A program made the position numbers and the translations under genes. Of a stretch of DNA of 64,000 nucleotides, positions 3,160 through 64,000 are shown one piece after another. This stretch comes from a bacterium HR11 (GTDB lineage Bacteria; Acidobacteriota; HRBIN11). Within the stretch, counting starts at the first letter, position 1; the number at the start of each line of letters is the position of its first letter. Below the pieces are notes generated by a model, which was not told the DNA's origin, searched no databases, and saw only the letters and a program-made list of their open reading frames with translations. The stretch covers positions 4,946-68,945 of the forward strand of contig BEHN01000007.1 in assembly GCA_002898535.1 (NCBI GenBank). Direction: 5' to 3'.

Positions 3160-3981
3160 TCACGGTCCCCCGCCCTGGATCGAGTAGGCGATCGTCAGGC
3201 TGAACAGGGCGTCGACGGGCTGGCCCCGGAGCGTCCCCGGCTTGAACCGCCACTGACGGACGCACTCGATGGCCGCCTGGTCGAGGACTCGGTCGACGGA
3301 CCGGACGACTCGAATCGGGCCGACCGTGCCGTCCCGCCGGACGACCAGGAGGAGGATGACGACGCCCTCGATGCGGTTGCGGCGGGCCTCCGGGGGGTAG
3401 ACGCACGGGACCTTCGAGATGGCGATGGGTGGCTCGCCCTCGCCGGGCCCGACGTGGACGCCGCCGAGGCCCGGGACCCCACCCAAAACGCCACCGGGCA
3501 CCCCACCGGGGACCCCGCCCGGGACGCCGCCGGGCACGCCGCCTTCGACGCCGCCCTCGACGCCCCAGACGGGGTCCCCCTCGAAAGTCCCGGCCAGTTC
3601 GTCGCCGGTCTCTGGACCCTCACTGTAGGGGACGATCACTTCGGGCGTGAACGCCGGGATGGCGATGGGGGCGACTTCCGGGGGCGGCGGCTCGGTCGGT
3701 CGAGGCCGGGCCGCCGACGGGGACGGTCCCGCCCGTCGGCCCGGCGGTGGGGGTGGCGGCGGCGGAGGCGGCGGGCCCAGCGTGCCCGTCCCGCCGATCA
3801 ACAGGGCCGGAACGGGCGGTTCGTCCAGATACTGGACCGACCACGCCGAAGCCAGGACCAGGGCGACGCCCAGCAGGACGTGCAGGCCGATGACCGGCGG
3901 GAACAGGGCCACCCGCCGGACGTCCCATCGCCGCCGTCGGGTGTCGATCAGGTCCTCGTGAAACCGTTTAGTCTGTAGCAT
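3160..3981 (-). CDS. tonB: TonB family protein (energy transducer)
   Basis: Start taken at M134 of ORF 3160..4380 (plus-strand CAT at 3979-3981). There is an N-terminal TM anchor, a Pro-rich spacer (PPPPPPPPPPP, GGVPGGVPGGVPGGV), and a C-terminal TonB domain ...EGVVILLLVVRRDGTVGPIRVVRSVDRVLDQAAIECVRQWRFKPGT. Confidence 0.75.
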   Translation of the reverse strand: MLQTKRFHEDLIDTRRRRWDVRRVALFPPVIGLHVLLGVALVLASAWSVQYLDEPPVPALLIGGTGTLGPPPPPPPPPPPGRRAGPSPSAARPRPTEPPPPEVAPIAIPAFTPEVIVPYSEGPETGDELAGTFEGDPVWGVEGGVEGGVPGGVPGGVPGGVPGGVLGGVPGLGGVHVGPGEGEPPIAISKVPCVYPPEARRNRIEGVVILLLVVRRDGTVGPIRVVRSVDRVLDQAAIECVRQWRFKPGTLRGQPVDALFSLTIAYSIQGGGP

Positions 3982-4145
3982 CTTCAGTGCCGGGCGCCGG
4001 GTCCCGGGGGAGGGACCGCGGCCCAGGATGCGAGTGCAGGACGCAAGATGACAGTCCCGGGTCCAGGATCGGCCGTTCGGCCGGCCGAATTCCCGATCCT
4101 GACGCCCGATATTCGGCACCCGGGACCGCCATCCTGCATCCCTAT

Positions 4146-7100
4146 TTATCTCAGTCCTTTCAGCTCCGTGGCCCGCTTCCACATATAGAATAAGACGGGA
4201 TAGACCAGGAGTTCCATCAGCAGGGACGACACGACGCCCCCGACCATCGGGGCCGCCATCCGTCGCCACACGTCGGCCCCGACGCCGCTGGCGAAGAGGA
4301 CGGGAATCAGCCCGGCCAGGATGGTCCCGACCGTCATCATCTTGGGCCGGACCCGCTGGACGGCGCCCTCCATGATACACTCGACGAAATCACTCAGCTT
4401 CTGGAGCCGACCCTCGGCTTGCCAGTGACGGTAGCTCAGGGTCAGGTACAACAGCATGACGACGCCCGTCTCGGCGTCCAGGCCGAGCAGGGCGATGATC
4501 CCCGTCCAGACGGCGACCGACAGGTTGTACTTCAGGAGGTATAACAGCCAGAAGGCCCCGATCAGCGAGAACGGCACGGCCAGCAGGACGATGGCCGTCT
4601 CGACGGCCGAGCGGGTATTCAAGTACAGAAGCAGGACGACGATGAAGAGCGTCAGGGGGACGACGAGCCGCATCCGCCGCCAGACCCGGGCCATGTACTC
4701 GTACTGGCCGGACCACTCGAGGCGGTAGCCCGGCGGGAGCTTCACGCTCGCCTGGACGACCCGCTTGGCCTCCTCGACGTAGCCCCCGACGTCCCGGCCC
4801 GTCATGTCGACGAACACGTAGCCGACGAGGTAACCCTCCTCGCTCTTGATCATGGACGGCCCGACGGCCCACCGGAGATCGGCGACGGCCGACAGGGGGA
4901 TCTGGGCGCCCGTCGGTGTGTCGATGAGGACCCGCTTGAGCTTTTCGACGTCGTCCCGCAGGCCCCGGCTATATCGGACCAGGACGGGATACCGCTCCCG
5001 CCCCTCGACGGTCGTCGTCACGTTCATGCCCCCGACGGCCGCCTGGAAGACGTTCTGGACGTCGGCGACGTTCAGCCCGTATCGGGCCGCCTCGGCTCGG
5101 TTCACGACGAGGTCGAGATAGTAGCCCTGGCCGACCCGTTCGGCGAACACGTTGCGGGTCCCGGGGACCCGCCGGAGGACGGTCTCGATTTCCCGGCCGA
5201 TGCGTTCAATCTCGTTCAAGTCCGTCCCGAAGACCTTGATGCCAATGGGTGTCCGGATACCCGTCGTCAGCATGTCGATGCGGTTCCGGATCGGCATCGT
5301 CCAGATGTTGCTGAGACCCGGAATCTGGAGGGCGTCGTTGAGGGCCTGCTGGAGTTTTTCGGGCGTCATCCCGGGCCGCCACTGGGACGGCGGCTTGAGC
5401 AGGATCGTCGTCTCGAACATCTCCAGGGGCGCCGGGTCGGTCGCCGTCTCGGCCCGGCCGGCCTTGCCGAAGACGAGGGCGACCTCCGGGAACTGCCGGA
5501 TGATACGGTCCGTCACCTGAAGGAGTTGGGTGACGGTCGTCACGGAGGCGCCCGGGATCGTCACGGGCATATAAAGGTATGACTCCTCCCACAGGGGCGG
5601 CATGAATTCTTTGCCCAACTGGCGGAAGGCCCAGACGGCCGAGACCATCAGGGCCAAGACGACGGCCAGGACGGCCCATCGGTGCCGCAGGCCGAACCGC
5701 AGGGTCGGCTCATACACCCGGTGAAGGAATCGGCTGACGGGATTCCGTTCCTCGGGTCGAATCTTCCCCCGGATGAAAGCGACCATCATGACCGGCGTCA
5801 GGGTGATGGCCACGAAGGAGGCGAACAGCATCGAGAACGTCTTCGTGTACGCCAGGGGCTTGAACAGCCGGCCCTCCTGGGCTTCCAGCGTGAAGATCGG
5901 CAGAAAGCTGACCGTGATGACCAGGAGCGCAAAGAACAGACTCGGCCCGACCTCCTGGGCCGCCCGGACGATGACGGCCGCCCGCGGCTCCGGCCGGCCC
6001 CGGCGCTCCCACTCCTCGAGCCGCTTGTGGGCCTGCTCGACCATGATGATGGCCGAATCGACCATCGCCCCGATGGCGATGGCGATGCCGCCCAGGGACA
6101 TCACGTTGGCCGAAATGTTCAGATGGTACATGGCGATGAAGCCCATCAGGACGGCGACGGGCAGGACCGTGATGATGACGAAGGCGCTCGGCAGGTGAAG
6201 GAGAAAGACGAGACACACGGCCGACACGACGACCGAAATCTTGAGGAGCTCGTCGGTCAGCGTGGCGATGGCCTTGTGGATGAGGTCGCTCCGGTCGTAG
6301 GTGACGACGACCTCGACGCCGGGCGGGAGGCTCGGCCGGAGCTCGGCGAGCTTCCGCTTGACCCGCTCGACGACCTCCAGGACGTTCTGGCCGTACCGGA
6401 CGACGACGATGCCGCCGACGACCTCGCCCTCGCCGTTGAGCTCGGCGACGCCCCGCCGGATTTCCGGCCCGAACTGGACCGCCCCGAGGTCCCGAAGCCG
6501 GACGGGCACGCCGGCGTCGTTGACCTTGACGACGACCTCCTCCAGGTCCCGCAGGCTCTGGACGTAGCCCCGGGCCCGGATCATGTACTCCCGCCCGCCG
6601 ACCTCTAAGACCCGGGCCCCCGTCTCCCGGTTCGAGTTCCGGATGGCCTCCATGACGGTCTCAAGGGAAACCCGGTAGGCCAGGAGCTTGTTGGGGTCCA
6701 GCGTGACCTGATACTGGCGGACGAAGCCCCCGAGGCTGGCGACCTCGGCGACGCCCGGGACGCTTTCGAGGGCATACTTGACGTAGAAGTCCTGAAGCGT
6801 CCGGAGCTGGGCCAGGTCGTGGCGGCCCGTGCGGTCGACGAGGGCGTACATGAAGCCCCAGCCAAGGCCCGTCGCGTCGGGGCCCAGGCGGGGTTCGACG
6901 CCCGGTGGGAGCTTCTGGCGGACCGTCTGGAGGTATTCGAGCGTCCGGCTTCGGGCCCAGTAGATGTCGGTCCCCTTTTCGAAGATGACGTACACGAAGG
7001 AGACCCCAAAGAAGGAAAAGCCCCGGACGACCTGGACCCGTGGGGCCGCCAGGAACGTCGTCACGATGGGATAGGTCACCTGGTCCTCGATGACCGAAGG

Positions 7101-7311: not shown

Positions 7312-7577
7312 TATCAGAGCCGTTCGGTTGGTGAAAACCCGCATGGATTCGGCTTTTTCGACCCTTCGGGAGGGACGGTTTTCAAGCTTTGGCAGATAGG
7401 CAGTTCGGCAGATGGGCAGATGGTCCCAAAAGCCCTGGGGCTGATCCTTGCCCACCCGGCTTCTATCTGCCTATCTGCCGACCTGCCCATCGGCCGGATG
7501 CTTGAAAAATCGTGCTTCCCGGGCGGTGGGAAAGGTTGATTTGACGCCATTCTCACGGACCGAACCGCTCTGTTAAG
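7312..7577. mobile_element. MITE-like palindromic element, family A copy 2, in the cusB-cusA intergenic space
   Basis: TCAGAGCCGTTCGG at the left end and CCGAACCGCTCTGTTAA at the right end, with GGCAGAT/GGCAGTT/GGCAGATGG 7-mer core and CCCCAGGGCTTTTGGGACC motif. It is the reverse orientation of the copy at 25476..25734. Confidence 0.65.
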
Positions 7578-11357: not shown

Positions 11358-11808
11358 TTCGGCAGATGGGCAGTCGGCAGGTCGGCAGGTCGGGCGACGG
11401 GCGTCTATCCTCGGAACACCGGCCGTCATGCCGGTGCCTTCCGTTCGGTTCGGGAGAATGGCGTCGGGACGGCCTTTTCCATCGCCCGGCAAGCACGATG
11501 TTTCACAAAGGGACGGAGTGATGGACCATAGACCCCAGACCATAGACCGGCTTGGGCCCAGGGGTCTATGGTCCATGGTCTATGGTCTATGGTCTATGGT
11601 CCGTGGTCCATGGTCTGGGGTCGGATATCGAGGGTCCGATCCCGGTCCCGTCGGATGGATGAGACCGGTTCGATGGAAGGATGATCCCGACCGGCCCGTC
11701 GGCCCAAGACCGTGGCTCGTCCCTCCGTCCCTTCAAAACCGTCCTCCCCGAAGGGTCGAAAAGGTCGAATCCATGCGGGCTTTCACGAACCGAACGGCTT
11801 TAATAAGC
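11358..11808. mobile_element. composite repeat: family-A MITE core and arms with a family-C (GGTCTATGG) palindrome inserted
   Basis: GGCAGATGGGCAGTCGGCAGGTCGGCAGG core at 11358-11400, arm ...GGGAGAATGGCGTCGGGACGGCCTTTTCC..., GACCATAGACC/GGTCTATGGTC palindrome at 11522-11625, and arm ...CCGAAGGGTCGAAAAGGTCGAATCCATGCGGGCTTTCACGAACCGAACGGCTTTAAT at 11735-11808. Confidence 0.5.
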
Positions 11809-12055: not shown

Positions 12056-13399
12056 ATGGTTGAGGCCGCTCAGACGTCTTATACCCACGAGCTGAAGGTC
12101 CAGGACGACTTTCATTTTCAGCTCTTCATCACGGTGCCCTGGCCGGAGGTCGATGCGAAGCTCAACGAGTACGCTCGGGAGCTCCGCCGGATCGTCCCCA
12201 TGCCGGGCTATCGTCCCGGCCGGGCGCCTGTCGAACTCATCCGACGGGTCCTTCGCAAGAGTCTGGAGGAGCGTCTCCGCGACTGGTTCCCCGAAGTCGT
12301 CCGACGGGTCGTTCAAGACCAACAGATGGACGTCGTGACGGACCCCGTCCTGACGGACTATACCTTTATTGAGGGCCAGCCCCTCGTGCTCCAGTGCTGG
12401 GGCACGTTGTGGCCGCCGGTCTCCCTGAAGCCCCTGACGGCGGTGACCCTGCCGGCGGATTTGGAAGCCCGCTGGCAGGCCGAGGAGCGGGCCCGGATCG
12501 ACCAGGAAATCGAGTCTTTGCGGGAGAAGCAGGCTATCCTTCAGCCCGTGACCGACCGGGGCCTTCAAGCCGGGGACACCGTGACCCTGGGGTTGAAAAT
12601 GGAAGACGTGGACACGGGTCAGGCGTATACGAATCCGGACGGTGAGGAGGTCGTCGTGACCTTAGGGAGCCCGGTCCTCCATCCGGCCGTGACGTATCAC
12701 TTAGAGGGCAAGCGTCCGGGCGACACTTTTACGTGGGAGATGGACATCACCCTCCCATGGGAATCGGAGACGTCCGCCCCGACGTCGGACCGACCGGGCC
12801 GCACGCGTCGGGTCCGCCTATCCGGCCGTATCGAAAACGTCTACGCCGTGGAGCTCCCGCCTGTCGAGGACCTCTTGGAACAGGAAGGCTTCGAGTCGCT
12901 CGACGAGTGGCGGGCGGCCCTGCGGGAGCGGCTGGCCGGCCGGCTCGCCGAGGAGCGGGAGGCCTGGCTTCAGGGTGTCCTCGTGGATGCCCTGATCGCC
13001 GAGTCGCCGGCCTGGCCCGACTGGTTAGTCCGTTCCTTCCTCCAGGAGGAGGTCGAGCGGATCGTCCGGAAGCAAATTCGGGCCTACGAACGGCTACACT
13101 TGTGGCTCACGCATCTGGAATCTATCGTCGGCGAGGCCCTATCGTCAGCCCACCGACGGGTCGCCCGGGTCGTCGCCCTGCATCATTTCATTCGGTCCGA
13201 GGGCCTGACCTTGAGTGATGAGGAATTCGACCAGTACCTGGCCGAGGTCGCCCGTCGGGAGAACCGCACGGTCGAATCCCTCCGAGCTTACGTAGAGGCC
13301 GACCCGACGGAGAAGGCCCACGTGTTCCAGCAGGCCCTCTTTCGGAAGGCGACCCACGTCCTGATGGAGCGACTGGGGCTCTCGGGCGGAGCTCCATGA
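12056..13399 (+). CDS. tig: trigger factor
   Basis: Start taken at [15 protein letters not shown]... (M29 of ORF 11972..13399). The Tig N-domain signature [17 protein letters not shown] (GFRxGxxP) is followed by PPIase and C-terminal arm domains. clpP is immediately downstream. Confidence 0.8.
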
Positions 13400-13429
13400 C
13401 GGGGCCATGGACAGCTCTCGGCATTTCGG

Positions 13430-13676
13430 GAATTCGGGAGTTCGGCAATTCGGCCGTTCGGCCGGTGGGACCGGTCGACCCTTTTTATCCCAGCCCCGCT
13501 CGTTCGAGCGGGGTCCGGAGCTATCCGGCCGTTCGGGAATCCGGGGATTCGGGAATTCGGGAGTTCGGGAGCCCGGGCATGGGGTGGCCGGCCGGGGCGG
13601 GGATGAGGCCTGGAGGCCCGTGCCGGTGGAAAAGGCCGTCTCGACGCCATTCTCACGGGCCGAACGGCTCTGTTAC
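13430..13676. repeat. family B GAATTCGGG palindrome (13430-13572) fused to a family-A MITE arm (13630-13676)
   Basis: CATTTCGGGAATTCGGGAGTTCGGCAATTCGGCCGTTCGG ... CCGTTCGGGAATCCGGGGATTCGGGAATTCGGGAGTTCGGGAGC, then GACGCCATTCTCACGGGCCGAACGGCTCTGTTA. Confidence 0.55.
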
Positions 13677-13716
13677 CCTATCACGACGTCGCGTCGTGAC
13701 GAACCTTGAGGTGAAG

Positions 13717-14334
13717 ATGGAGCTGAAGGGTCAGTTGATCCCCATCGTCATCGAGCAGACTCAACGCGGCGAACGGGCTTATGACATTTACTCCCGCCTC
13801 CTCCGGGACAACATCATCTTCCTGGGCATGCCGATCGACGACAACGTGGCCAACCTCATCGTCGCCCAGATCCTCTTCCTGGAGGCCGAGGACCCCGAAA
13901 AGGACATCCATCTTTACATTAACTCGCCCGGCGGGGCCATCACGTCGGGCCTGGCCATCTACGACACGATGCAGTTTGTCCGACCGGACATCACGACCTA
14001 CTGCGTCGGTCAGGCCGCCAGTATGGCGGCCGTCTTACTGGCGGCGGGCACGAAAGGCAAGCGATACTCGCTTCCCCATTCCCGGGTCATCATCCATCAG
14101 CCGATGGGCGGCATCCAAGGCCAGGCCGTGGACATCGAGATTCATGCCCGGGAGATCCTGCGCATCAAGCAATTGATCGTCGACATCCTGGCCCAGCACA
14201 CGGGTCAAAAGCCCGAGCGCATCGAGGAGGACATCGACCGGGACTTCATCATGACGGCGACCCAGGCCAAGGAGTACGGTATCGTCGACGAGGTCATCTC
14301 CCGACGGGGCAACCAACGGGAGACTCGCAAGTAG
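13717..14334 (+). CDS. clpP: ATP-dependent Clp protease proteolytic subunit
   Basis: 205 aa from [29 protein letters not shown]... RBS GAGGTG lies 5 nt upstream. The catalytic-triad region is GQAASMAA...HQPMGG. The N-terminal 107 codons of ORF 13396..14334 are translated repeat sequence. Confidence 0.9.
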
Positions 14335-19665: not shown

Positions 19666-19720
19666 GGTCTATGGTCGATGGTCCATGGTCTGTAGTCCAA
19701 GATGGACCGTTATGGATGGT
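19666..19720. repeat. family C GGTCTATGG heptamer palindrome (short)
   Basis: GGTCTATGGTCGATGGTCCATGGTCTGTAGTCC. Confidence 0.45.
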
Positions 19721-21036: not shown

Positions 21037-21318
21037 ATGACGAAACGGATGGGAAGCCGGGTCATCGGCCTGGTCCTGGCGGGGTGGGTCCTGGGCTTGG
21101 CCGTGGCCCGGGCGGATGAGGTCGCCAAGGTCCAGTCTGCCTGTGCCGCCCAGCTCCTGGAGGAACTCCAGGGTTCGTCCTCAAAGTGTAGCCTGTTCCC
21201 GAGCCTGCTGTTGACCCAGGGGCGCTACGCCCTGGTCGATATCCATGTCCGATGCGTCGCTCCCGGTTCGAGGGGGCCCGAGGTCTCCTATCAGAGCCGT
21301 TCGGGAGGTGAGAAGTGA
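21037..21318 (+). CDS. small secreted hypothetical protein
   Basis: Start at MTKRMGSRVIGLVLAGWVLGLAVARA (signal peptide), with RBS GGAGG 7 nt upstream. The C-terminal about 10 codons read into the MITE at 21292. Confidence 0.35.
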   Translation: MTKRMGSRVIGLVLAGWVLGLAVARADEVAKVQSACAAQLLEELQGSSSKCSLFPSLLLTQGRYALVDIHVRCVAPGSRGPEVSYQSRSGGEK

Positions 21319-21376
21319 GATGGAGGTGCCCTTTCCGCTCTCCATCTCACTTCTCACCTCCCGAACGGCTTTGTTA
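21292..21376. mobile_element. short palindromic variant of MITE family A
   Basis: CAGAGCCGTTCGGGAGGTGAGAAGTGAGATGGAGGTGCCCTTTCCGCTCTCCATCTCACTTCTCACCTCCCGAACGGCTTTGTTA is a near-perfect hairpin related to the arms of copy 1. Confidence 0.55.
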
Positions 21377-21460: not shown

Positions 21461-24436
21461 ATGGCCGACAAGCCGGTGTTTCGTCCCATCAGTGATTACA
21501 TCTGGGAGGCGGAGCCCGTCGGCGATATGCGGGTCCCGGCCCGGGTCTTTGCCTCCAAGAAGCTCTGGGACCTCATCCAGCGGGACAACAGCCTGAAGCA
21601 GTTGTGCAACGTGGCGACGCTCCCGGGGATCGTGGGCTATGCGCTGGCGATGCCGGACATCCACGAGGGCTACGGCTTTCCCATCGGGGGCGTGGCGGCC
21701 TTTCGGGTCGAAGACGGAATTATATCACCTGGAGGCGTTGGGTATGACGTGAATTGCCTGTACGGTGATGCCAAAGTATTGCACATTCACGGATACACTC
21801 GGGCCATCGCCGATATGGAGGCCGACTGGCCTCAAGGGCGGGTCCGTTGTCAGGACTTCCGGGGGGGCCATGGTACGGATACACCCGTCATCGGCTTTTT
21901 ACGCCGTCGCCCTTACGGGACCGTTTATCGGGTGACGACGGACACGGGCCATGAAACTGTCGCGACGGCCGACCATCCCTTCTGGACGCCGGCGGGGATG
22001 GTCGAGCTCCGGCGGCTCCAGGTCGGGGATCGGGTGGCCGTCTACCCCTTTGAGGGCGTGCCTTACGAGGAGCCGGCGGCTCGGGTGTTGGTGGACGAGT
22101 CCCATATCGTGGCCGTCCTGGAACGCTATGGGAAGGCCGGGCGCGGCCGGGCCGTCACCCAGGTCTTGCGCCGACTTCGGTCGCGGGGGCTTCTGCCCTT
22201 GCGGGCGAACGCGCCGCAGGTCCCTTACCTGCTGAAGCTCTTGGGGTACGTGCTGGGAGACGGCACGGTCTACTTCACAGGCGGCACGGGCAAGGGCGTC
22301 GTGTGGTTTTATGGCCGACCGGAGGACCTGGAGGCTATCCGGGCCGACGTGGCGGCCCTCGGCTTCACGCCCTCTCGGATTTACAGTCGTCCCCGTCGTC
22401 ACCGTGTCACGACGGCCTATCGGGACTATGAATTCGAGAGCCAGGAACACGCCGTAAAGGTCGTAAGCAGTAGCTTCGCCGCCTTGCTGGTCGCTCTGGG
22501 CGCCCCGGTCGGCAACAAGGCGGTACAGGACTATGGGGTCCCCGAGTGGCTCCTGGAGGCACCTCGCTGGCATCAACGCCTCTTTTTAGCCGCCCTTTTT
22601 GGGGCCGAGCTTTCAGCCCCCCGGGCTTTGGACCGACACAATCACAATTTCATGACTCCTGTACTCTCGGTGAGCAAGCGAGAATCCCACGTCGATAGTG
22701 GCCGTCGTTTCCTCGAGGATATCGGGCGCATGTTAGCCGGTTTTGGCGTTCAGGTCCTGAAGATCTCTCAGCGGCGAGAGCAGACGCATGCGGACGGGAG
22801 CCGCTCGGTCCGTCTCCGACTCGTTCTCTCCGCCCGGCTCGACAGTCTGCGCAACCTCTGGGGCCGCATTGGATTCGAGTACAATCAAAAGCGGCAGGCC
22901 CTGGCGAGCGTGGCTGTCGGGTATTTACGGTACAAAGCGCATGTCTTGCGCCTCCGGGAGGAGGCGGCTTCGGCGGCCGTCGCCCTGCGGGCCCAGGCTC
23001 TGCCGCCGACGGCCATCTTCGACCGGCTCGTCGGCTTGTATGTAAATCGGCGCTTTTTAGAGCGGTCGCTGTATGAAGGTCGCACGAGCCCTCGGGTCGG
23101 CGCCGCCTTCATGACCTTCGAGGAGTACCGCCGTTGGGCGACCGAGGGTCTGGGGACCAGCGGGATGGTCTGGAGCCGGATCATTCGTCTGGAGCCGATT
23201 CCCTTCGCCGGGGACGTTTACGACCTGACCGTCGCCCATCCAGACCATAACTTCATCGCCGACGGATTCGTCGTCTCCAACTGCGGCGTCCGGGTCGTCG
23301 TCACGAACCTGACCCGGGAGGACCTGGAGGGGAAGGTCGAGCGGCTGGCCGACGTCCTGTTCGAGACGGTCCCGACGGGCGTCGGCGCCCACGGCGCCAT
23401 TCGCAAGCTCAGTCGGGAGGAGCTCCGGCAGGTCGTCGTCCGGGGCGCCCGGTGGGCCGTCGAGGAGGGCTTCGGGACCGAGGCGGACCTGGCCCACACC
23501 GAGGAAAACGGCTGTCTCGCCGGGGCGGACCCCGACAAGATCTCCCACCGGGCCTACGAGCGTGGGGCCGACCAGCTCGGGACCCTGGGGTCGGGCAACC
23601 ACTTTGCCGAGGTCGACGTCATCGACGAGATTTACGACGAGGCGGCCGCGCAGCGGTTGGGCCTCTTTCGGGGCCAGGTCGTCTATCAGATCCACTGCGG
23701 CTCTCGGGGCTTCGGGCACCAGATTTGCGACGATTACCTGGGCGTCATGTACCGGGCCGTCCAGAAGTACGGCATTCGCCTGCCGGACCGTCAGCTCGTG
23801 TGTGCGCCCCTTTCGTCGCCCGAGGCCCAGGACTACCTGGGGGCGATGCGGGGGGCGGCCAACTTTGCGTGGTGTAACCGGCAGATCATCATGGCCCTGA
23901 TGGCGAAGGCTTTTCAAAAGGCCCTGGGCGTCTCGCCCCGGGACCTGGGCGTCCGGCTCCTGTACGACGTGTGTCATAATATCGCCAAAATCGAGGAGCA
24001 CGTCATCGACGGTCAACGCGTGAAGGTCTGCGTCCACCGGAAGGGGGCCACGCGGGCCTTCCCGCCGGGTCGGCCCGAGATACCGGCCGACTATCGGGAC
24101 ATCGGTCAGCCGGTCCTGATCCCGGGCGACATGGGCCGGTACTCGTACATCCTCTTGGGGAAGCCGAAGGCGATGGAGCTGACCTTTGGGAGCTCCTGTC
24201 ATGGGGCGGGTCGGGTCATGAGCCGGGCCCAGGCGAAGCGTCTGGCGGCGCATCGGGACATCGAGCGGGAGCTCCGGGAGATGGGGATCATCGTCCGGGG
24301 CGAGAGTCGAGCGACCATCGACGAGGAGATGTCGGAGGCTTACAAGGACGTCAGCGAGGTCGTCGAGGTCGTCCATCGGACGGGCATCAGCACGAAGTTC
24401 GTACGTCTCCGGCCCGTCTGCGTCATCAAGGGATAG
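21461..24436 (+). CDS. rtcB: RNA-splicing ligase RtcB, interrupted by an in-frame intein
   Basis: Start at MADKPVFRPISDYIW... (M73 of ORF 21245..24436). The N-extein ends ...SPGGVGYDVN and the C-extein resumes CGVRVVVTNL... Downstream RtcB motifs are LGSGNHFAEVDV, HCGSRGFGHQ and SSCHGAGR. Total length is 991 aa against about 480 aa for intein-less RtcB. Confidence 0.85.
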   Translation: MADKPVFRPISDYIWEAEPVGDMRVPARVFASKKLWDLIQRDNSLKQLCNVATLPGIVGYALAMPDIHEGYGFPIGGVAAFRVEDGIISPGGVGYDVNCLYGDAKVLHIHGYTRAIADMEADWPQGRVRCQDFRGGHGTDTPVIGFLRRRPYGTVYRVTTDTGHETVATADHPFWTPAGMVELRRLQVGDRVAVYPFEGVPYEEPAARVLVDESHIVAVLERYGKAGRGRAVTQVLRRLRSRGLLPLRANAPQVPYLLKLLGYVLGDGTVYFTGGTGKGVVWFYGRPEDLEAIRADVAALGFTPSRIYSRPRRHRVTTAYRDYEFESQEHAVKVVSSSFAALLVALGAPVGNKAVQDYGVPEWLLEAPRWHQRLFLAALFGAELSAPRALDRHNHNFMTPVLSVSKRESHVDSGRRFLEDIGRMLAGFGVQVLKISQRREQTHADGSRSVRLRLVLSARLDSLRNLWGRIGFEYNQKRQALASVAVGYLRYKAHVLRLREEAASAAVALRAQALPPTAIFDRLVGLYVNRRFLERSLYEGRTSPRVGAAFMTFEEYRRWATEGLGTSGMVWSRIIRLEPIPFAGDVYDLTVAHPDHNFIADGFVVSNCGVRVVVTNLTREDLEGKVERLADVLFETVPTGVGAHGAIRKLSREELRQVVVRGARWAVEEGFGTEADLAHTEENGCLAGADPDKISHRAYERGADQLGTLGSGNHFAEVDVIDEIYDEAAAQRLGLFRGQVVYQIHCGSRGFGHQICDDYLGVMYRAVQKYGIRLPDRQLVCAPLSSPEAQDYLGAMRGAANFAWCNRQIIMALMAKAFQKALGVSPRDLGVRLLYDVCHNIAKIEEHVIDGQRVKVCVHRKGATRAFPPGRPEIPADYRDIGQPVLIPGDMGRYSYILLGKPKAMELTFGSSCHGAGRVMSRAQAKRLAAHRDIERELREMGIIVRGESRATIDEEMSEAYKDVSEVVEVVHRTGISTKFVRLRPVCVIKG
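21755..23281 (+). other. intein (509 aa) with LAGLIDADG homing-endonuclease domain inside rtcB
   Basis: The insert begins with Cys (CLYGDAKVLHIHGYT...) and ends ...HPDHNFIADGFVVSN immediately before the Cys of CGVRVV. LAGLIDADG-like motifs are LLGYVLGDGTVYF and FLAALFGAELS. The penultimate residue is Ser rather than the usual His. Confidence 0.75.
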
Positions 24437-24486: not shown

Positions 24487-25368
24487 ATGCGGCGAGGTTT
24501 GTCCGTGGTCGCATGCAAGCAATGTCGGGACACGGGCTGGCTTCCCGTCGAGCGGGGCGGCGTCGCCGGCGTCCGGCCGTGCGCATGCCGTCAGGAGCGT
24601 CAGCTCCGGTATCGTCTTCAGCAGGCCGGGATCCCGCCCCGGTTTCTGGACGCCGAGTTCGACACGTTCCAGCCGATTCACGAATCTCAGGCGTATGCCT
24701 TAGAGTTGGCGGTCCAGTTTGCGCGGTCTTATCCTGCCGTGGAGAGCGGTCTCTTCTTTGTCGGCCCGACGGGGGTCGGCAAGACGCACCTGATGGTCGC
24801 CGTCCTCAAGGCCCTGGCCCAACGGGACGTGCCGGTCCTGTTCTGTGATTGCAACGAGCTTCTGACTCAGCTTCGGCGCTCTTACAGTCGGGAAGCGTCG
24901 GTCTCCGAGGCCGACCTCATTCAGCCCCTGTTGGAGACCGAGCTCGTCCTCCTGGACGACTTGGGGGCGCATCGGGCCAGCGAATGGGTCTTCGACGTCC
25001 TGTTTTCGATCATTAACTACCGGTACAATCATCGGAAGCCCCTCCTGGTGACCAGCAATCTCATCGTGGACCGGCCCGGGGAGGACGTCCGGAGCCTCCT
25101 GGTGAGCCACCTCTCCCAGCGGGTCTACTCTCGGCTCGCCGAGATGTGTCTGATCACCGTGATCCGGGGTCCCGACTACCGGGTCGAAATCCGTCAGCCG
25201 GCCTGGCAGCAGACCCGGGGTACGGGCGACGGCTTGGCCCAGACGGCTCCGACCGCAGACCGGGGACCGGAGACTGGGGACCGGAGACCGGCGTCGGTGA
25301 CCCGACGGCTGGTCCGGCCGCCCCGTCTGGTCGGGCCGGACCTCCCGCCGGGGCCGGACGAGACTTGA
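24487..25368 (+). CDS. DnaC/IstB-like AAA+ ATPase (helicase-loader-like) with N-terminal Cys4 zinc ribbon
   Basis: CKQCRDTGW...CAC zinc ribbon. Walker A is GPTGVGKTH and Walker B is LVLLDDLG, with sensor SNL. The ATP-binding core is typical of DnaC/DnaI/IstB. The C-terminal about 50 aa are low-complexity. Confidence 0.7.
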   Translation: MRRGLSVVACKQCRDTGWLPVERGGVAGVRPCACRQERQLRYRLQQAGIPPRFLDAEFDTFQPIHESQAYALELAVQFARSYPAVESGLFFVGPTGVGKTHLMVAVLKALAQRDVPVLFCDCNELLTQLRRSYSREASVSEADLIQPLLETELVLLDDLGAHRASEWVFDVLFSIINYRYNHRKPLLVTSNLIVDRPGEDVRSLLVSHLSQRVYSRLAEMCLITVIRGPDYRVEIRQPAWQQTRGTGDGLAQTAPTADRGPETGDRRPASVTRRLVRPPRLVGPDLPPGPDET

Positions 25369-25370
25369 GA

Positions 25371-25450
25371 AGACCACAGACCATAGACCACAGACCATAG
25401 ACCGGCTTGGGCCCAGGGGTCTATGGTCCATGGTCTGTGGTCTATGGTCG
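25371..25450. repeat. family C palindrome (GACCACAGACCATAGACC ... GGTCTATGGTCCATGGTCTGTGGTCTATGGTC)
   Basis: Inverted 7-mer arrays around the GGCTTGGGCCCAGGG centre. Confidence 0.6.
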
Positions 25451-25734: not shown

Positions 25735-25850
25735 ATAACCGGACTGCCGAATTCCCGAATCGTCCAAAAGATTTGGTTGACAAAGCACAAATCCCAAAGC
25801 AAGTTTATAATTTATGGTCTGTAGTCCGTGGTCTGGGGTCTTCCAGATCC

Positions 25851-37935: not shown

Positions 37936-38090
37936 GACCATAGGCGATAGACCCCAGACCATGGGCCACGGAGCGTAGAGCACGGACCTCCCGGCCGTGG
38001 GGATGAGTGGGAGGGTCTTCCGAAACTTGTCCAAGGCCCGTATCTAAATTCCATGGTCTAAGGTCTGTGGTCTATGGTCTATGGTCTTTA
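37936..38090. repeat. family C GGTCTATGG palindrome with about 70-bp spacer
   Basis: CCATAGGCGATAGACCCCAGACCATGGGCC ... CCATGGTCTAAGGTCTGTGGTCTATGGTCTATGGTC. Confidence 0.55.
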
Positions 38091-41945: not shown

Positions 41946-42274
41946 GCACTTCGTGGCTTTTGGCTTACGTCACGATGGGGGCCCTGCTGTTCGGTATCGG
42001 GGTCGTCGGCTTCCTCGTCCGGCGGAACCTGATCGTCCTCTTTATGTGTATCGAACTCATGCTGAACGGGGTCAACCTGACGCTGACGGCCTTTTCCCGG
42101 TACCACGGCTCGGTCGACGGCCAGGTCATCGCCTCGATGGTCATCGTCTTGGCCGCTTCCGAGGCGGCCGTCGGCCTGGCCCTGCTGGTCATGATTTTCC
42201 GGCACCTGCGGACGTTAGACACGGAGACCTTCACGCGCTTGGGGGAGGCAAAGACCATAGACCCCGGACCATGA
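41942..42274 (+). CDS. nuoK: NADH-quinone oxidoreductase subunit K
   Basis: MSTSWLLAYVTMGALLFGIGVVGFLVRRNLIVLFMCIELMLNGVNLTLTAF... The start overlaps the nuoJ stop. The last about 8 codons read into a family-C repeat. Confidence 0.85.
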   Translation: MSTSWLLAYVTMGALLFGIGVVGFLVRRNLIVLFMCIELMLNGVNLTLTAFSRYHGSVDGQVIASMVIVLAASEAAVGLALLVMIFRHLRTLDTETFTRLGEAKTIDPGP

Positions 42275-42358
42275 CCTTGTGGGGTCACGGAGTACCCTCA
42301 CCCGAGATGAGGCAGACTTGGCCTTCCAAAGGTCTATGGTCTAAGGTCCATGGTCTTT
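42252..42358. repeat. family C GGTCTATGG palindrome between nuoK and nuoL
   Basis: GACCATAGACCCCGGACCATGACC ... GGTCTATGGTCTAAGGTCCATGGTC. Confidence 0.55.
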
Positions 42359-63896: not shown

Positions 63897-64000
63897 GACC
63901 CCAGACTCCAGACCACGGACCCCAGACCTGTCTCGGGCGACCGGGCGGCCTCGTCCTGAGACCCTATAGGTCTGTGGTCCATGGTCTATGGTCCATCCCT
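63897..64000. repeat. family C palindrome (CCAGACTCCAGACCACGGACCCCAGACC ... GGTCTGTGGTCCATGGTCTATGGTCC)
   Basis: 7-bp periodic inverted arrays at the window edge. Confidence 0.55.

Follow-up and report, generated by a model that had tools for sequence, protein, structure and literature searches.

The rtcB gene and its insert

The DNA analysed, hereafter the window, is a stretch of 64,000 nucleotides (nt) from bacterium HR11 (assembly GCA_002898535.1, contig BEHN01000007.1, positions 4,946 to 68,945), and the locus was assigned to Acidobacteriota by a scan of species-representative genomes. Its forward strand carries an open reading frame (ORF) that encodes an RtcB precursor of 991 amino acids (aa) and a stop codon and scores 566 bits with the Pfam family RtcB (PF01139). 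The RtcB sequence is interrupted by an insert, which is very probably an intein of class 1 that houses a LAGLIDADG homing endonuclease with two motifs and sits at the conserved RtcB site GxGYD(I/V)N-CGVR of an Acidobacteriota chromosome (here and below, the hyphen within such a motif marks the junction). The precursor also matches the curated profile NF038162, “intein-containing RtcB family protein”, at 1238 bits, where the cutoff is 1150, the match covering protein residues 7-991 and profile positions 2-961.

In alignments with the solved structures of RtcB, TTHA1785 and PH1602, the precursor falls into two blocks, comprising residues 6-99 (GGVGYDVN-C) and 607-991 (N-CGVRVVV). Because the alignment breaks exactly there, residues 99-607 (CLYGDAKVLH...FIADGFVVSN) constitute the insert. 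The N-extein, 98% identical to that of the relative L002 described below, carries the Mn2 ligand Asp96, the counterpart of Asp95 of Pyrococcus horikoshii RtcB. The C-extein holds the motifs GSGNHF, HCGSRG, CHN and SSCHGAGR, the last with the guanylylation His, and all catalytic motifs are retained. In the alignment, Asp96, Cys608 and these four motifs correspond to P. horikoshii D95, C98, H203, H234, H329 and H404. The two exteins together form a complete RtcB, a 3'-phosphate/5'-OH RNA ligase, with its metal ligands (an Asp, a Cys and three His) and the guanylylated His, the roles of which are known from the P. horikoshii enzyme (PMC9745838).

The first residue after the insert, Cys608 (Cys+1), aligns with Cys98 of P. 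horikoshii, a bridging ligand of Mn1 and Mn2 whose mutation abolishes every ligation step (PMC9745838). Cys98 also marks the junction at which the RtcB intein of Pyrococcus is spliced (PMC4150793). The P. horikoshii intein in PH1602 thus shares with the window intein both the host protein and the position of the junction (PMC4150793, PMC9745838) but belongs to an archaeal host; this comparison covers the host protein and the junction.

The junctions were also defined by comparison with relatives. In the metagenome-assembled genome (MAG) SKYB104 (L005), the exteins of which are 94% identical at the aa level, the site reads ...GGVGYDIN-CGVRVAV..., an empty site of the form GGTTATGATATCAAC-TGTGGAGTCCGA. 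Since a relative this close has the sequence GGVGYDIN-CGVRV uninterrupted, both intein junctions are fixed. A clean indel of 1527 nt is the sole difference at the site between L005 and the window, and the gene downstream keeps its synteny. The intein is absent as well from another Acidobacteriota MAG (L006; extein identity 80%), and more than 30 further RtcB loci are uninterrupted at GxGYDIN-CGVR. The same site is occupied in the MAG JZ-1.bins.94 (L002), with an aa identity of 97-98% for the exteins and 83% for the intein, and an intein is also present in two Fraserbacteria MAGs (L003 and L004; ~55% identity in the best segment of the whole protein).

The initial annotation of this DNA had split RtcB after GGVGYDVN, with resumption at CGVRVVV, and had described a 509-aa insert at 21755..23281 that starts with Cys, contains LAGLIDADG motifs and ends in DGFVVSN just before the extein Cys. 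Every coordinate and residue of this description proved correct; Ser508 is the penultimate residue, and the position of the junction is beyond doubt. The motifs lie where the features are listed in Table 1, and the proposed location in the metal-binding Cys region of the active site can be specified as immediately before the Cys homologous to P. horikoshii Cys98. The checks suggested there, a comparison with intein profiles and a search for intein-less alleles, both spoke for an intein: blocks A, B, F and G are present, the Hint profiles and the Hint fold match, and the alleles of L005 and L006 are uninterrupted, the indel being exact at N-C.

Table 1. Features of the rtcB precursor gene and its intein, in window coordinates
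Feature	Position	Strand	Sequence and residues	Basis
rtcB precursor ORF (N-extein, intein, C-extein)	21461..24436	+		PF01139; NF038162; matching gene call on Logan contig L001
N-extein	21461..21754	+	aa 1-98, ending GGVGYDVN (last nt 21754)	aligned to TTHA1785 13-108 and PH1602 11-97
Intein	21755..23281	+	509 aa, Cys1 to Ser508-Asn509	exact indel vs intein-less L005 and L006; intein profiles; AlphaFold2 model
Block A	21755..21784	+	CLYGDAKVLH; Cys1, predicted nucleophile	TIGR01445; Cys first in 58/58 scorable homologues
Block B	21947..21985	+	GHETVATADHPFW; Thr71 (B:7), His74 (B:10), Pro75 (B:11)	52-sequence alignment
LAGLIDADG motif 1	22229..22276	+	LLKLLGYVLGDGTVYF; intein aa 159-174; predicted catalytic Asp169	Asp169 in 51/52; model helix 156-169
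Endonuclease domain Lys255	22511..22531	+	GNKAVQD	Lys255 in 47/52
LAGLIDADG motif 2	22577..22621	+	RLFLAALFGAELSAP; intein aa 275-289; predicted catalytic Glu285	Glu285 in 49/52; model helix 271-285
Helical region between endonuclease core and C-terminal Hint strands	22880..23150	+	intein aa ~376-465	model helices 378-413, 418-425, 432-440, 455-462
Block F	23210..23260	+	GDVYDLTVAHPDHNFIA; Asp490 (F:4), His498 (F:13)	Asp490 in 51/52; His498 in 51/52
Block G	23261..23281	+	DGFVVSN; Ser508 (G:6, where His is usual), Asn509 (G:7)	TIGR01443; 52-sequence alignment
C-extein	23282..24433	+	aa 608-991, opening CGVRVVV with Cys+1	aligned to TTHA1785 108-487 and PH1602 97-481

Architecture and predicted function of the intein

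The insert matched the NCBIfam intein splicing profiles TIGR01445 (N-terminal, intein aa 1-78) and TIGR01443 (C-terminal) above their cutoffs, and Pfam Intein_splicing (PF14890) with 44-47 bits against a cutoff of 35.8. An AlphaFold2 model of the intein was built from 52 homologues, the alignment of which also supplied the conservation counts given out of 52. The model has a predicted local distance difference test score of 95 and a predicted template modelling (TM) score of 0.93. As was found by the Foldseek search, its best PDB matches are the inteins TliVMA, PI-TkoII, PI-PfuI, PhoVMA and PI-SceI (E 7e-18 to 6e-11), and next in rank come the mini-inteins NpuDnaB, Mtu RecA and Ssp DnaB and the free LAGLIDADG enzymes I-SceI, I-OnuI variants and I-AniI. 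The Hint fold is supported by the superposition of NpuDnaB on the model with a root-mean-square deviation of 1.5 Å over 97 columns. The endonuclease fold matches the same free enzymes, bI3 maturase and the endonuclease domains of PI-PfuI and PI-SceI. PI-PfuI, PI-TkoII, TliVMA and PI-SceI share with the model the two-domain architecture of Hint and double LAGLIDADG, but they reside in other host genes, their sequence identity to the window intein is 13-16% and the global TM-scores are low (0.27-0.33). These four inteins end in His-Asn.

The residues expected to take part in splicing are strongly conserved. The codon of Cys1 occupies nt 21755-21757, and the TxxH signature of block B is T71-A-D-H74, with Thr71 kept in 48 of the 52 sequences and His74 and Pro75 in 51 each. 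Block F aligns to the Npu DnaE IntC sequence ...VYDIGVERDHNF..., and Asn509, found in all 52 sequences, is directly followed by Cys608. Of the 96 columns with a conservation of ≥85%, the window intein agrees with the consensus in 95, and this copy is intact, with every predicted catalytic residue retained. Apart from Cys1, the only Cys of the intein is Cys32 (window 21848-21850), which 32 of 52 family members have and which is replaced mainly by Val, Leu or Thr in the others.

In the endonuclease domain, the acidic residues of LGDG (Asp169) and FGAEL (Glu285) each lie at the C-terminal end of a model helix (156-169 and 271-285, respectively), and Lys255 may, by analogy with PI-SceI and I-CreI, be the active-site Lys of the LAGLIDADG type. 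The helical region that follows the endonuclease core gave no match in a Pfam search; its ratio of non-synonymous to synonymous divergence (omega) is 0.17, and it may be an accessory DNA-binding region.

According to the mechanism that these residues suggest, Cys1 would undergo an N-to-S acyl shift, giving a thioester at the N-junction with the aid of Thr71 and His74 of block B. Cys608 would attack this thioester by trans-thioesterification, leading to a branched intermediate in which the N-extein has moved to Cys608. Cyclisation of Asn509, assisted by Asp490 and His498 of block F and proceeding with no part played by a His at G:6, would free the intein, and an S-to-N shift would yield an RtcB of 482 aa, in which Cys+1 would be the ligand bridging the two Mn ions. 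Because 509 residues separate Asp96 from this Cys in the precursor, we infer that the precursor is inactive and that splicing is required for ligase activity. The released intein, equipped with Asp169, Glu285 and Lys255, most likely cuts intein-less rtcB alleles and copies itself into them by homing, and such homing would account for the patchy presence of the intein among close relatives.

Family distribution, mobility and alternative explanations

A word-indexed search yielded 113 homologues, the majority of them bacterial MAG proteins from many phyla; the hosts include Chloroflexota, Poribacteria, Armatimonadota, Planctomycetota, Omnitrophota, Atribacterota, Myxococcota, Thermus filiformis and others, as well as Halobacteria. 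Among representatives clustered at 50% identity, an exhaustive search detected 175 clusters with E ≤ 1e-30 and 968 with E ≤ 1e-3. The members of the NF038162 family have in common the insertion site, the combination of Hint, LAGLIDADG and helical regions (~500 aa) and the ending ...GFVVSN-CGVR. The window intein shows no qualitative difference from them; over the intein, its identity to the nearest clustered homologue is 61%, and the nearest genome copy is the L002 intein. The survey of Novikova et al. (2016) lists RtcB as an intein host, counting 27 cases in bacteria and 10 in archaea (PMC4760082). The view of the initial annotation that a full-length intein is less common in a bacterial rtcB is therefore not borne out, given these counts, the NF038162 score and the mostly bacterial origin of the 113 homologues.

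The same annotation had called the Ser-Asn ending non-canonical and had considered splicing competence to be of interest for this reason; that the ending is a notable deviation which would put splicing in doubt is not supported. The window copy indeed departs from the penultimate His (G:6) that is typical of class-1 inteins, though not obligatory, having Ser508 instead, but Ser-Asn is the family consensus. The C-terminal pair is Ser-Asn in 71 of 77 scorable homologues, His-Asn in five and Tyr-Asn in one, and in the 52-sequence alignment position 508 is Ser in 46 sequences and His in six. The homologues ending in Ser-Asn belong to otherwise intact RtcB genes of many phyla. About 5% of functional inteins have no His at G:6 (PMC4031507), and the Npu DnaE intein ends in ...GFIASN, its IntC part ending in ...HNFALKNGFIASN (PMC9703936).

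Npu DnaE IntC aligns to blocks F and G of the window intein, and the likeness extends to the pattern VYD..V..DHNF...GF..SN-C. The Npu and Ssp DnaE inteins, which also lack the penultimate His (Ser-Asn in Npu), nevertheless splice efficiently. They differ from the window intein in being split, in having no endonuclease and in their host gene; in addition, an Arg or Lys at B:11 aids their Asn cyclisation, whereas a conserved Pro occupies this position here. On this evidence, the window intein is a routine member of a curated and widespread family in which Ser-Asn is the norm. The proper annotation of the gene is “intein-containing RtcB family protein”, with a mature ligase of 482 aa. The RtcB inteins ending in Ser-Asn could be useful as a test case, derived from thermophiles, of Asn cyclisation without His at G:6, which is an incremental question.

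Related inteins (E ≤ 1e-35; P0114, P0120, P0124, P0167, P0121 and P0156-P0248) sit at other sites and in other hosts. These sites include a second RtcB site, N-CIGGVAAF, and N-CGYDINCG, and some of the +1 contexts (CxPYNADF, CGLVKN) resemble RNA polymerase subunits. The endings of these inteins are Gly-Asn, Lys-Asn, Ser-Asn or His-Asn, the whole clade being variable at G:6.

Divergence between the window and L002 was estimated by the Nei-Gojobori method, window positions 21755-23281 being compared with L002 positions 3295-4806 for the intein. The synonymous divergence (dS) is 0.96 and omega is 0.10 for the whole intein, 1.05 and 0.085 for the endonuclease region, and 0.28 and 0.06 for the extein. 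The endonuclease region evolves under purifying selection. Silent sites have diverged ~3.4 times more in the intein than in the extein of the same genome pair, and this gap suggests independent or repeated invasion of the intein from a diverged source, not co-inheritance with the host gene. The presence and absence of the intein among relatives, together with the dS values, make up the classic pattern of a homing cycle, and from the sequence evidence the intein appears active and mobile. The locus represents a tidy natural example of such a cycle: besides the occupied allele of the window there is an empty one in a relative with 94% identity, and a further occupied allele carries an intein that has diverged far more than the gene around it.

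Two other possible traces of mobility were considered and set aside. Foreign base composition as a mark of very recent transfer is not striking, since the total GC content is 0.64 in the intein versus 0.66 in the extein; at third codon positions (GC3) the values are 0.75 and 0.87, and the lower GC3 of the intein is only suggestive as a sign of transfer. Nor is a co-conversion tract claimed at the junction: the DNA identity of the extein to L002 falls to 0.82-0.87 there, but comparable dips occur elsewhere in the gene.

Some points weigh against the interpretation of the insert as a splicing intein with a homing endonuclease. On the isolated domain, the Pfam profile LAGLIDADG_3 (PF14528) gave a weak score of 18.4 bits against a cutoff of 22.5, so that the assignment of the putative endonuclease leans mainly on the predicted fold and on motif conservation; a precomputed match to this profile is carried by two family members. 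A weaker codon bias of the intein, and not a separate history, could partly explain its higher dS. The helper Arg or Lys of the DnaE type at B:11 is missing, as the alignment has Pro75 at this position in 51 of 52 sequences.

The first of these points bears on the possibility that the intein splices while its endonuclease is inactive, the insert being a vertically inherited passenger whose domain is retained for folding or for another role. Degenerate intein endonucleases are frequent, and the LAGLIDADG_3 score below threshold would fit such a state. Nevertheless, Asp169, Glu285 and Lys255 are each kept in at least 90% of the family, omega over the endonuclease region is as low as reported above, relatives whose exteins are 94-98% identical differ in whether they carry the intein, and the excess of intein dS suggests a history separate from that of the host gene; an inactive endonuclease is accordingly unlikely, with a minor though real chance of being right. 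It is much less probable that splicing is impaired for want of the penultimate His, which would make this rtcB copy effectively non-functional or slow to mature. The His at G:6 normally aids Asn cyclisation, its restoration improves splicing in some inteins (PMC4031507), and six aligned family members do have His at position 508. However, the occurrence of Ser-Asn across bacterial phyla and Halobacteria speaks against impairment, very fast splicing is known for inteins with this ending, Npu DnaE among them, and the exteins of the intein-bearing genes, with omega at 0.06 and RtcB catalytic motifs intact, are not what is expected of a dead gene. A reading of the insert as an insertion domain of RtcB other than an intein, or of its junctions as misplaced, has next to no probability and is contradicted by the matches of the N- and C-terminal Hint profiles, the alignment with RtcB structures, a predicted fold resembling solved inteins in the Foldseek matches and the intein-less alleles, with their clean indel exactly at N-C.

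Control of splicing by the state of the junction residues was considered as well. Disulfide-controlled splicing is known in other inteins. Here, the redox or metal state at Cys1 and Cys+1, possibly together with Cys32, might gate the maturation of the RNA-repair ligase under stress, a purely conjectural scheme to which we assign a low probability. Cys1 and Cys+1 are both thiols, Cys+1 is a metal-bridging and oxidation-sensitive Cys of the active site (PMC9745838), and Cys32, the single other Cys of the intein, is shared by 32 of 52 family members. On the other hand, Cys32 gives way to Val, Leu or Thr in about one third of the family and hence is not obligatory, and homing into a conserved sequence fully explains the insertion site. 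Along the same lines, the family-wide Ser at G:6 and Pro at B:11 might reflect a distinct way of catalysing Asn cyclisation, other than the DnaE solution, or a splicing step, deliberately slow or gated by redox or metal state, that makes RtcB maturation conditional on the state of the Mn-binding Cys; this idea, too, is improbable. The reading as a class-1 intein with a homing endonuclease is preferred to all of these.

Gene start, neighbouring genes and intergenic repeats

The start codon of rtcB is the ATG at 21461. This position is supported by the nearest rtcB orthologues, which open with MADKPVF or MTDKPVF, by an independent gene call, which has the same start base, on a public contig of 4 kb and identical sequence (Logan DRR101362, L001) and by the sequence GAGG 6 nt 5' of the start. 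A longer alternative ORF opening at 21245 was dismissed as the rtcB start; it crosses an intergenic hairpin with 37-nt arms at 21289-21376.

The neighbouring genes encode trigger factor, ClpP, pyruvate phosphate dikinase, a DnaC/IstB-like ATPase, MutL, CorC and RibBA, and the neighbourhood of rtcB is that of an ordinary bacterial chromosome. The gene of the DnaC/IstB-like AAA+ ATPase (PF01695, 61 bits) lies directly downstream of rtcB at 24487-25368 on the forward strand; it is syntenic in the intein-less L005 and in the locus L041, and no transposase is adjacent to it. In the ClpP ORF as listed (13396-14331, forward strand, 312 aa), the Clp protease domain spans residues 124-303 only; the true start is probably downstream, or else the protein has an unusual N-terminal extension of ~120 aa.

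An Rfam scan of the whole window gave no hits reaching the gathering thresholds. The intergenic regions of the window contain a family of inverted repeats with the conserved ends ...CAGAGCCGTTCG / CGAACGGCTCTG..., which occur as pairs at 1749/2021, 16171/16441 and 25477/25734 and singly at 7315, 13661, 14544, 19356 and 36922. A 12-mer of this family has 16 occurrences at ≤1 mismatch against 0.44 expected. The hairpin at 21289-21376 is a further copy, located 85 nt upstream of rtcB. These elements look like repetitive extragenic palindromic (REP) sequences or miniature inverted-repeat transposable elements (MITEs).

Arrays of a 7-nt unit, (GACCAYA)n, are arranged as inverted repeats and form long hairpins; they occupy at least seven intergenic sites (11524-11622, 19666-19697, 25372-25449, 25816-25833, 37936-38086, 42253-42355 and 63911-63993), and an 18-mer of the repeat has 29 matches against 0.01 expected. 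One of these arrays is located directly 3' of the DnaC-like gene downstream of rtcB.

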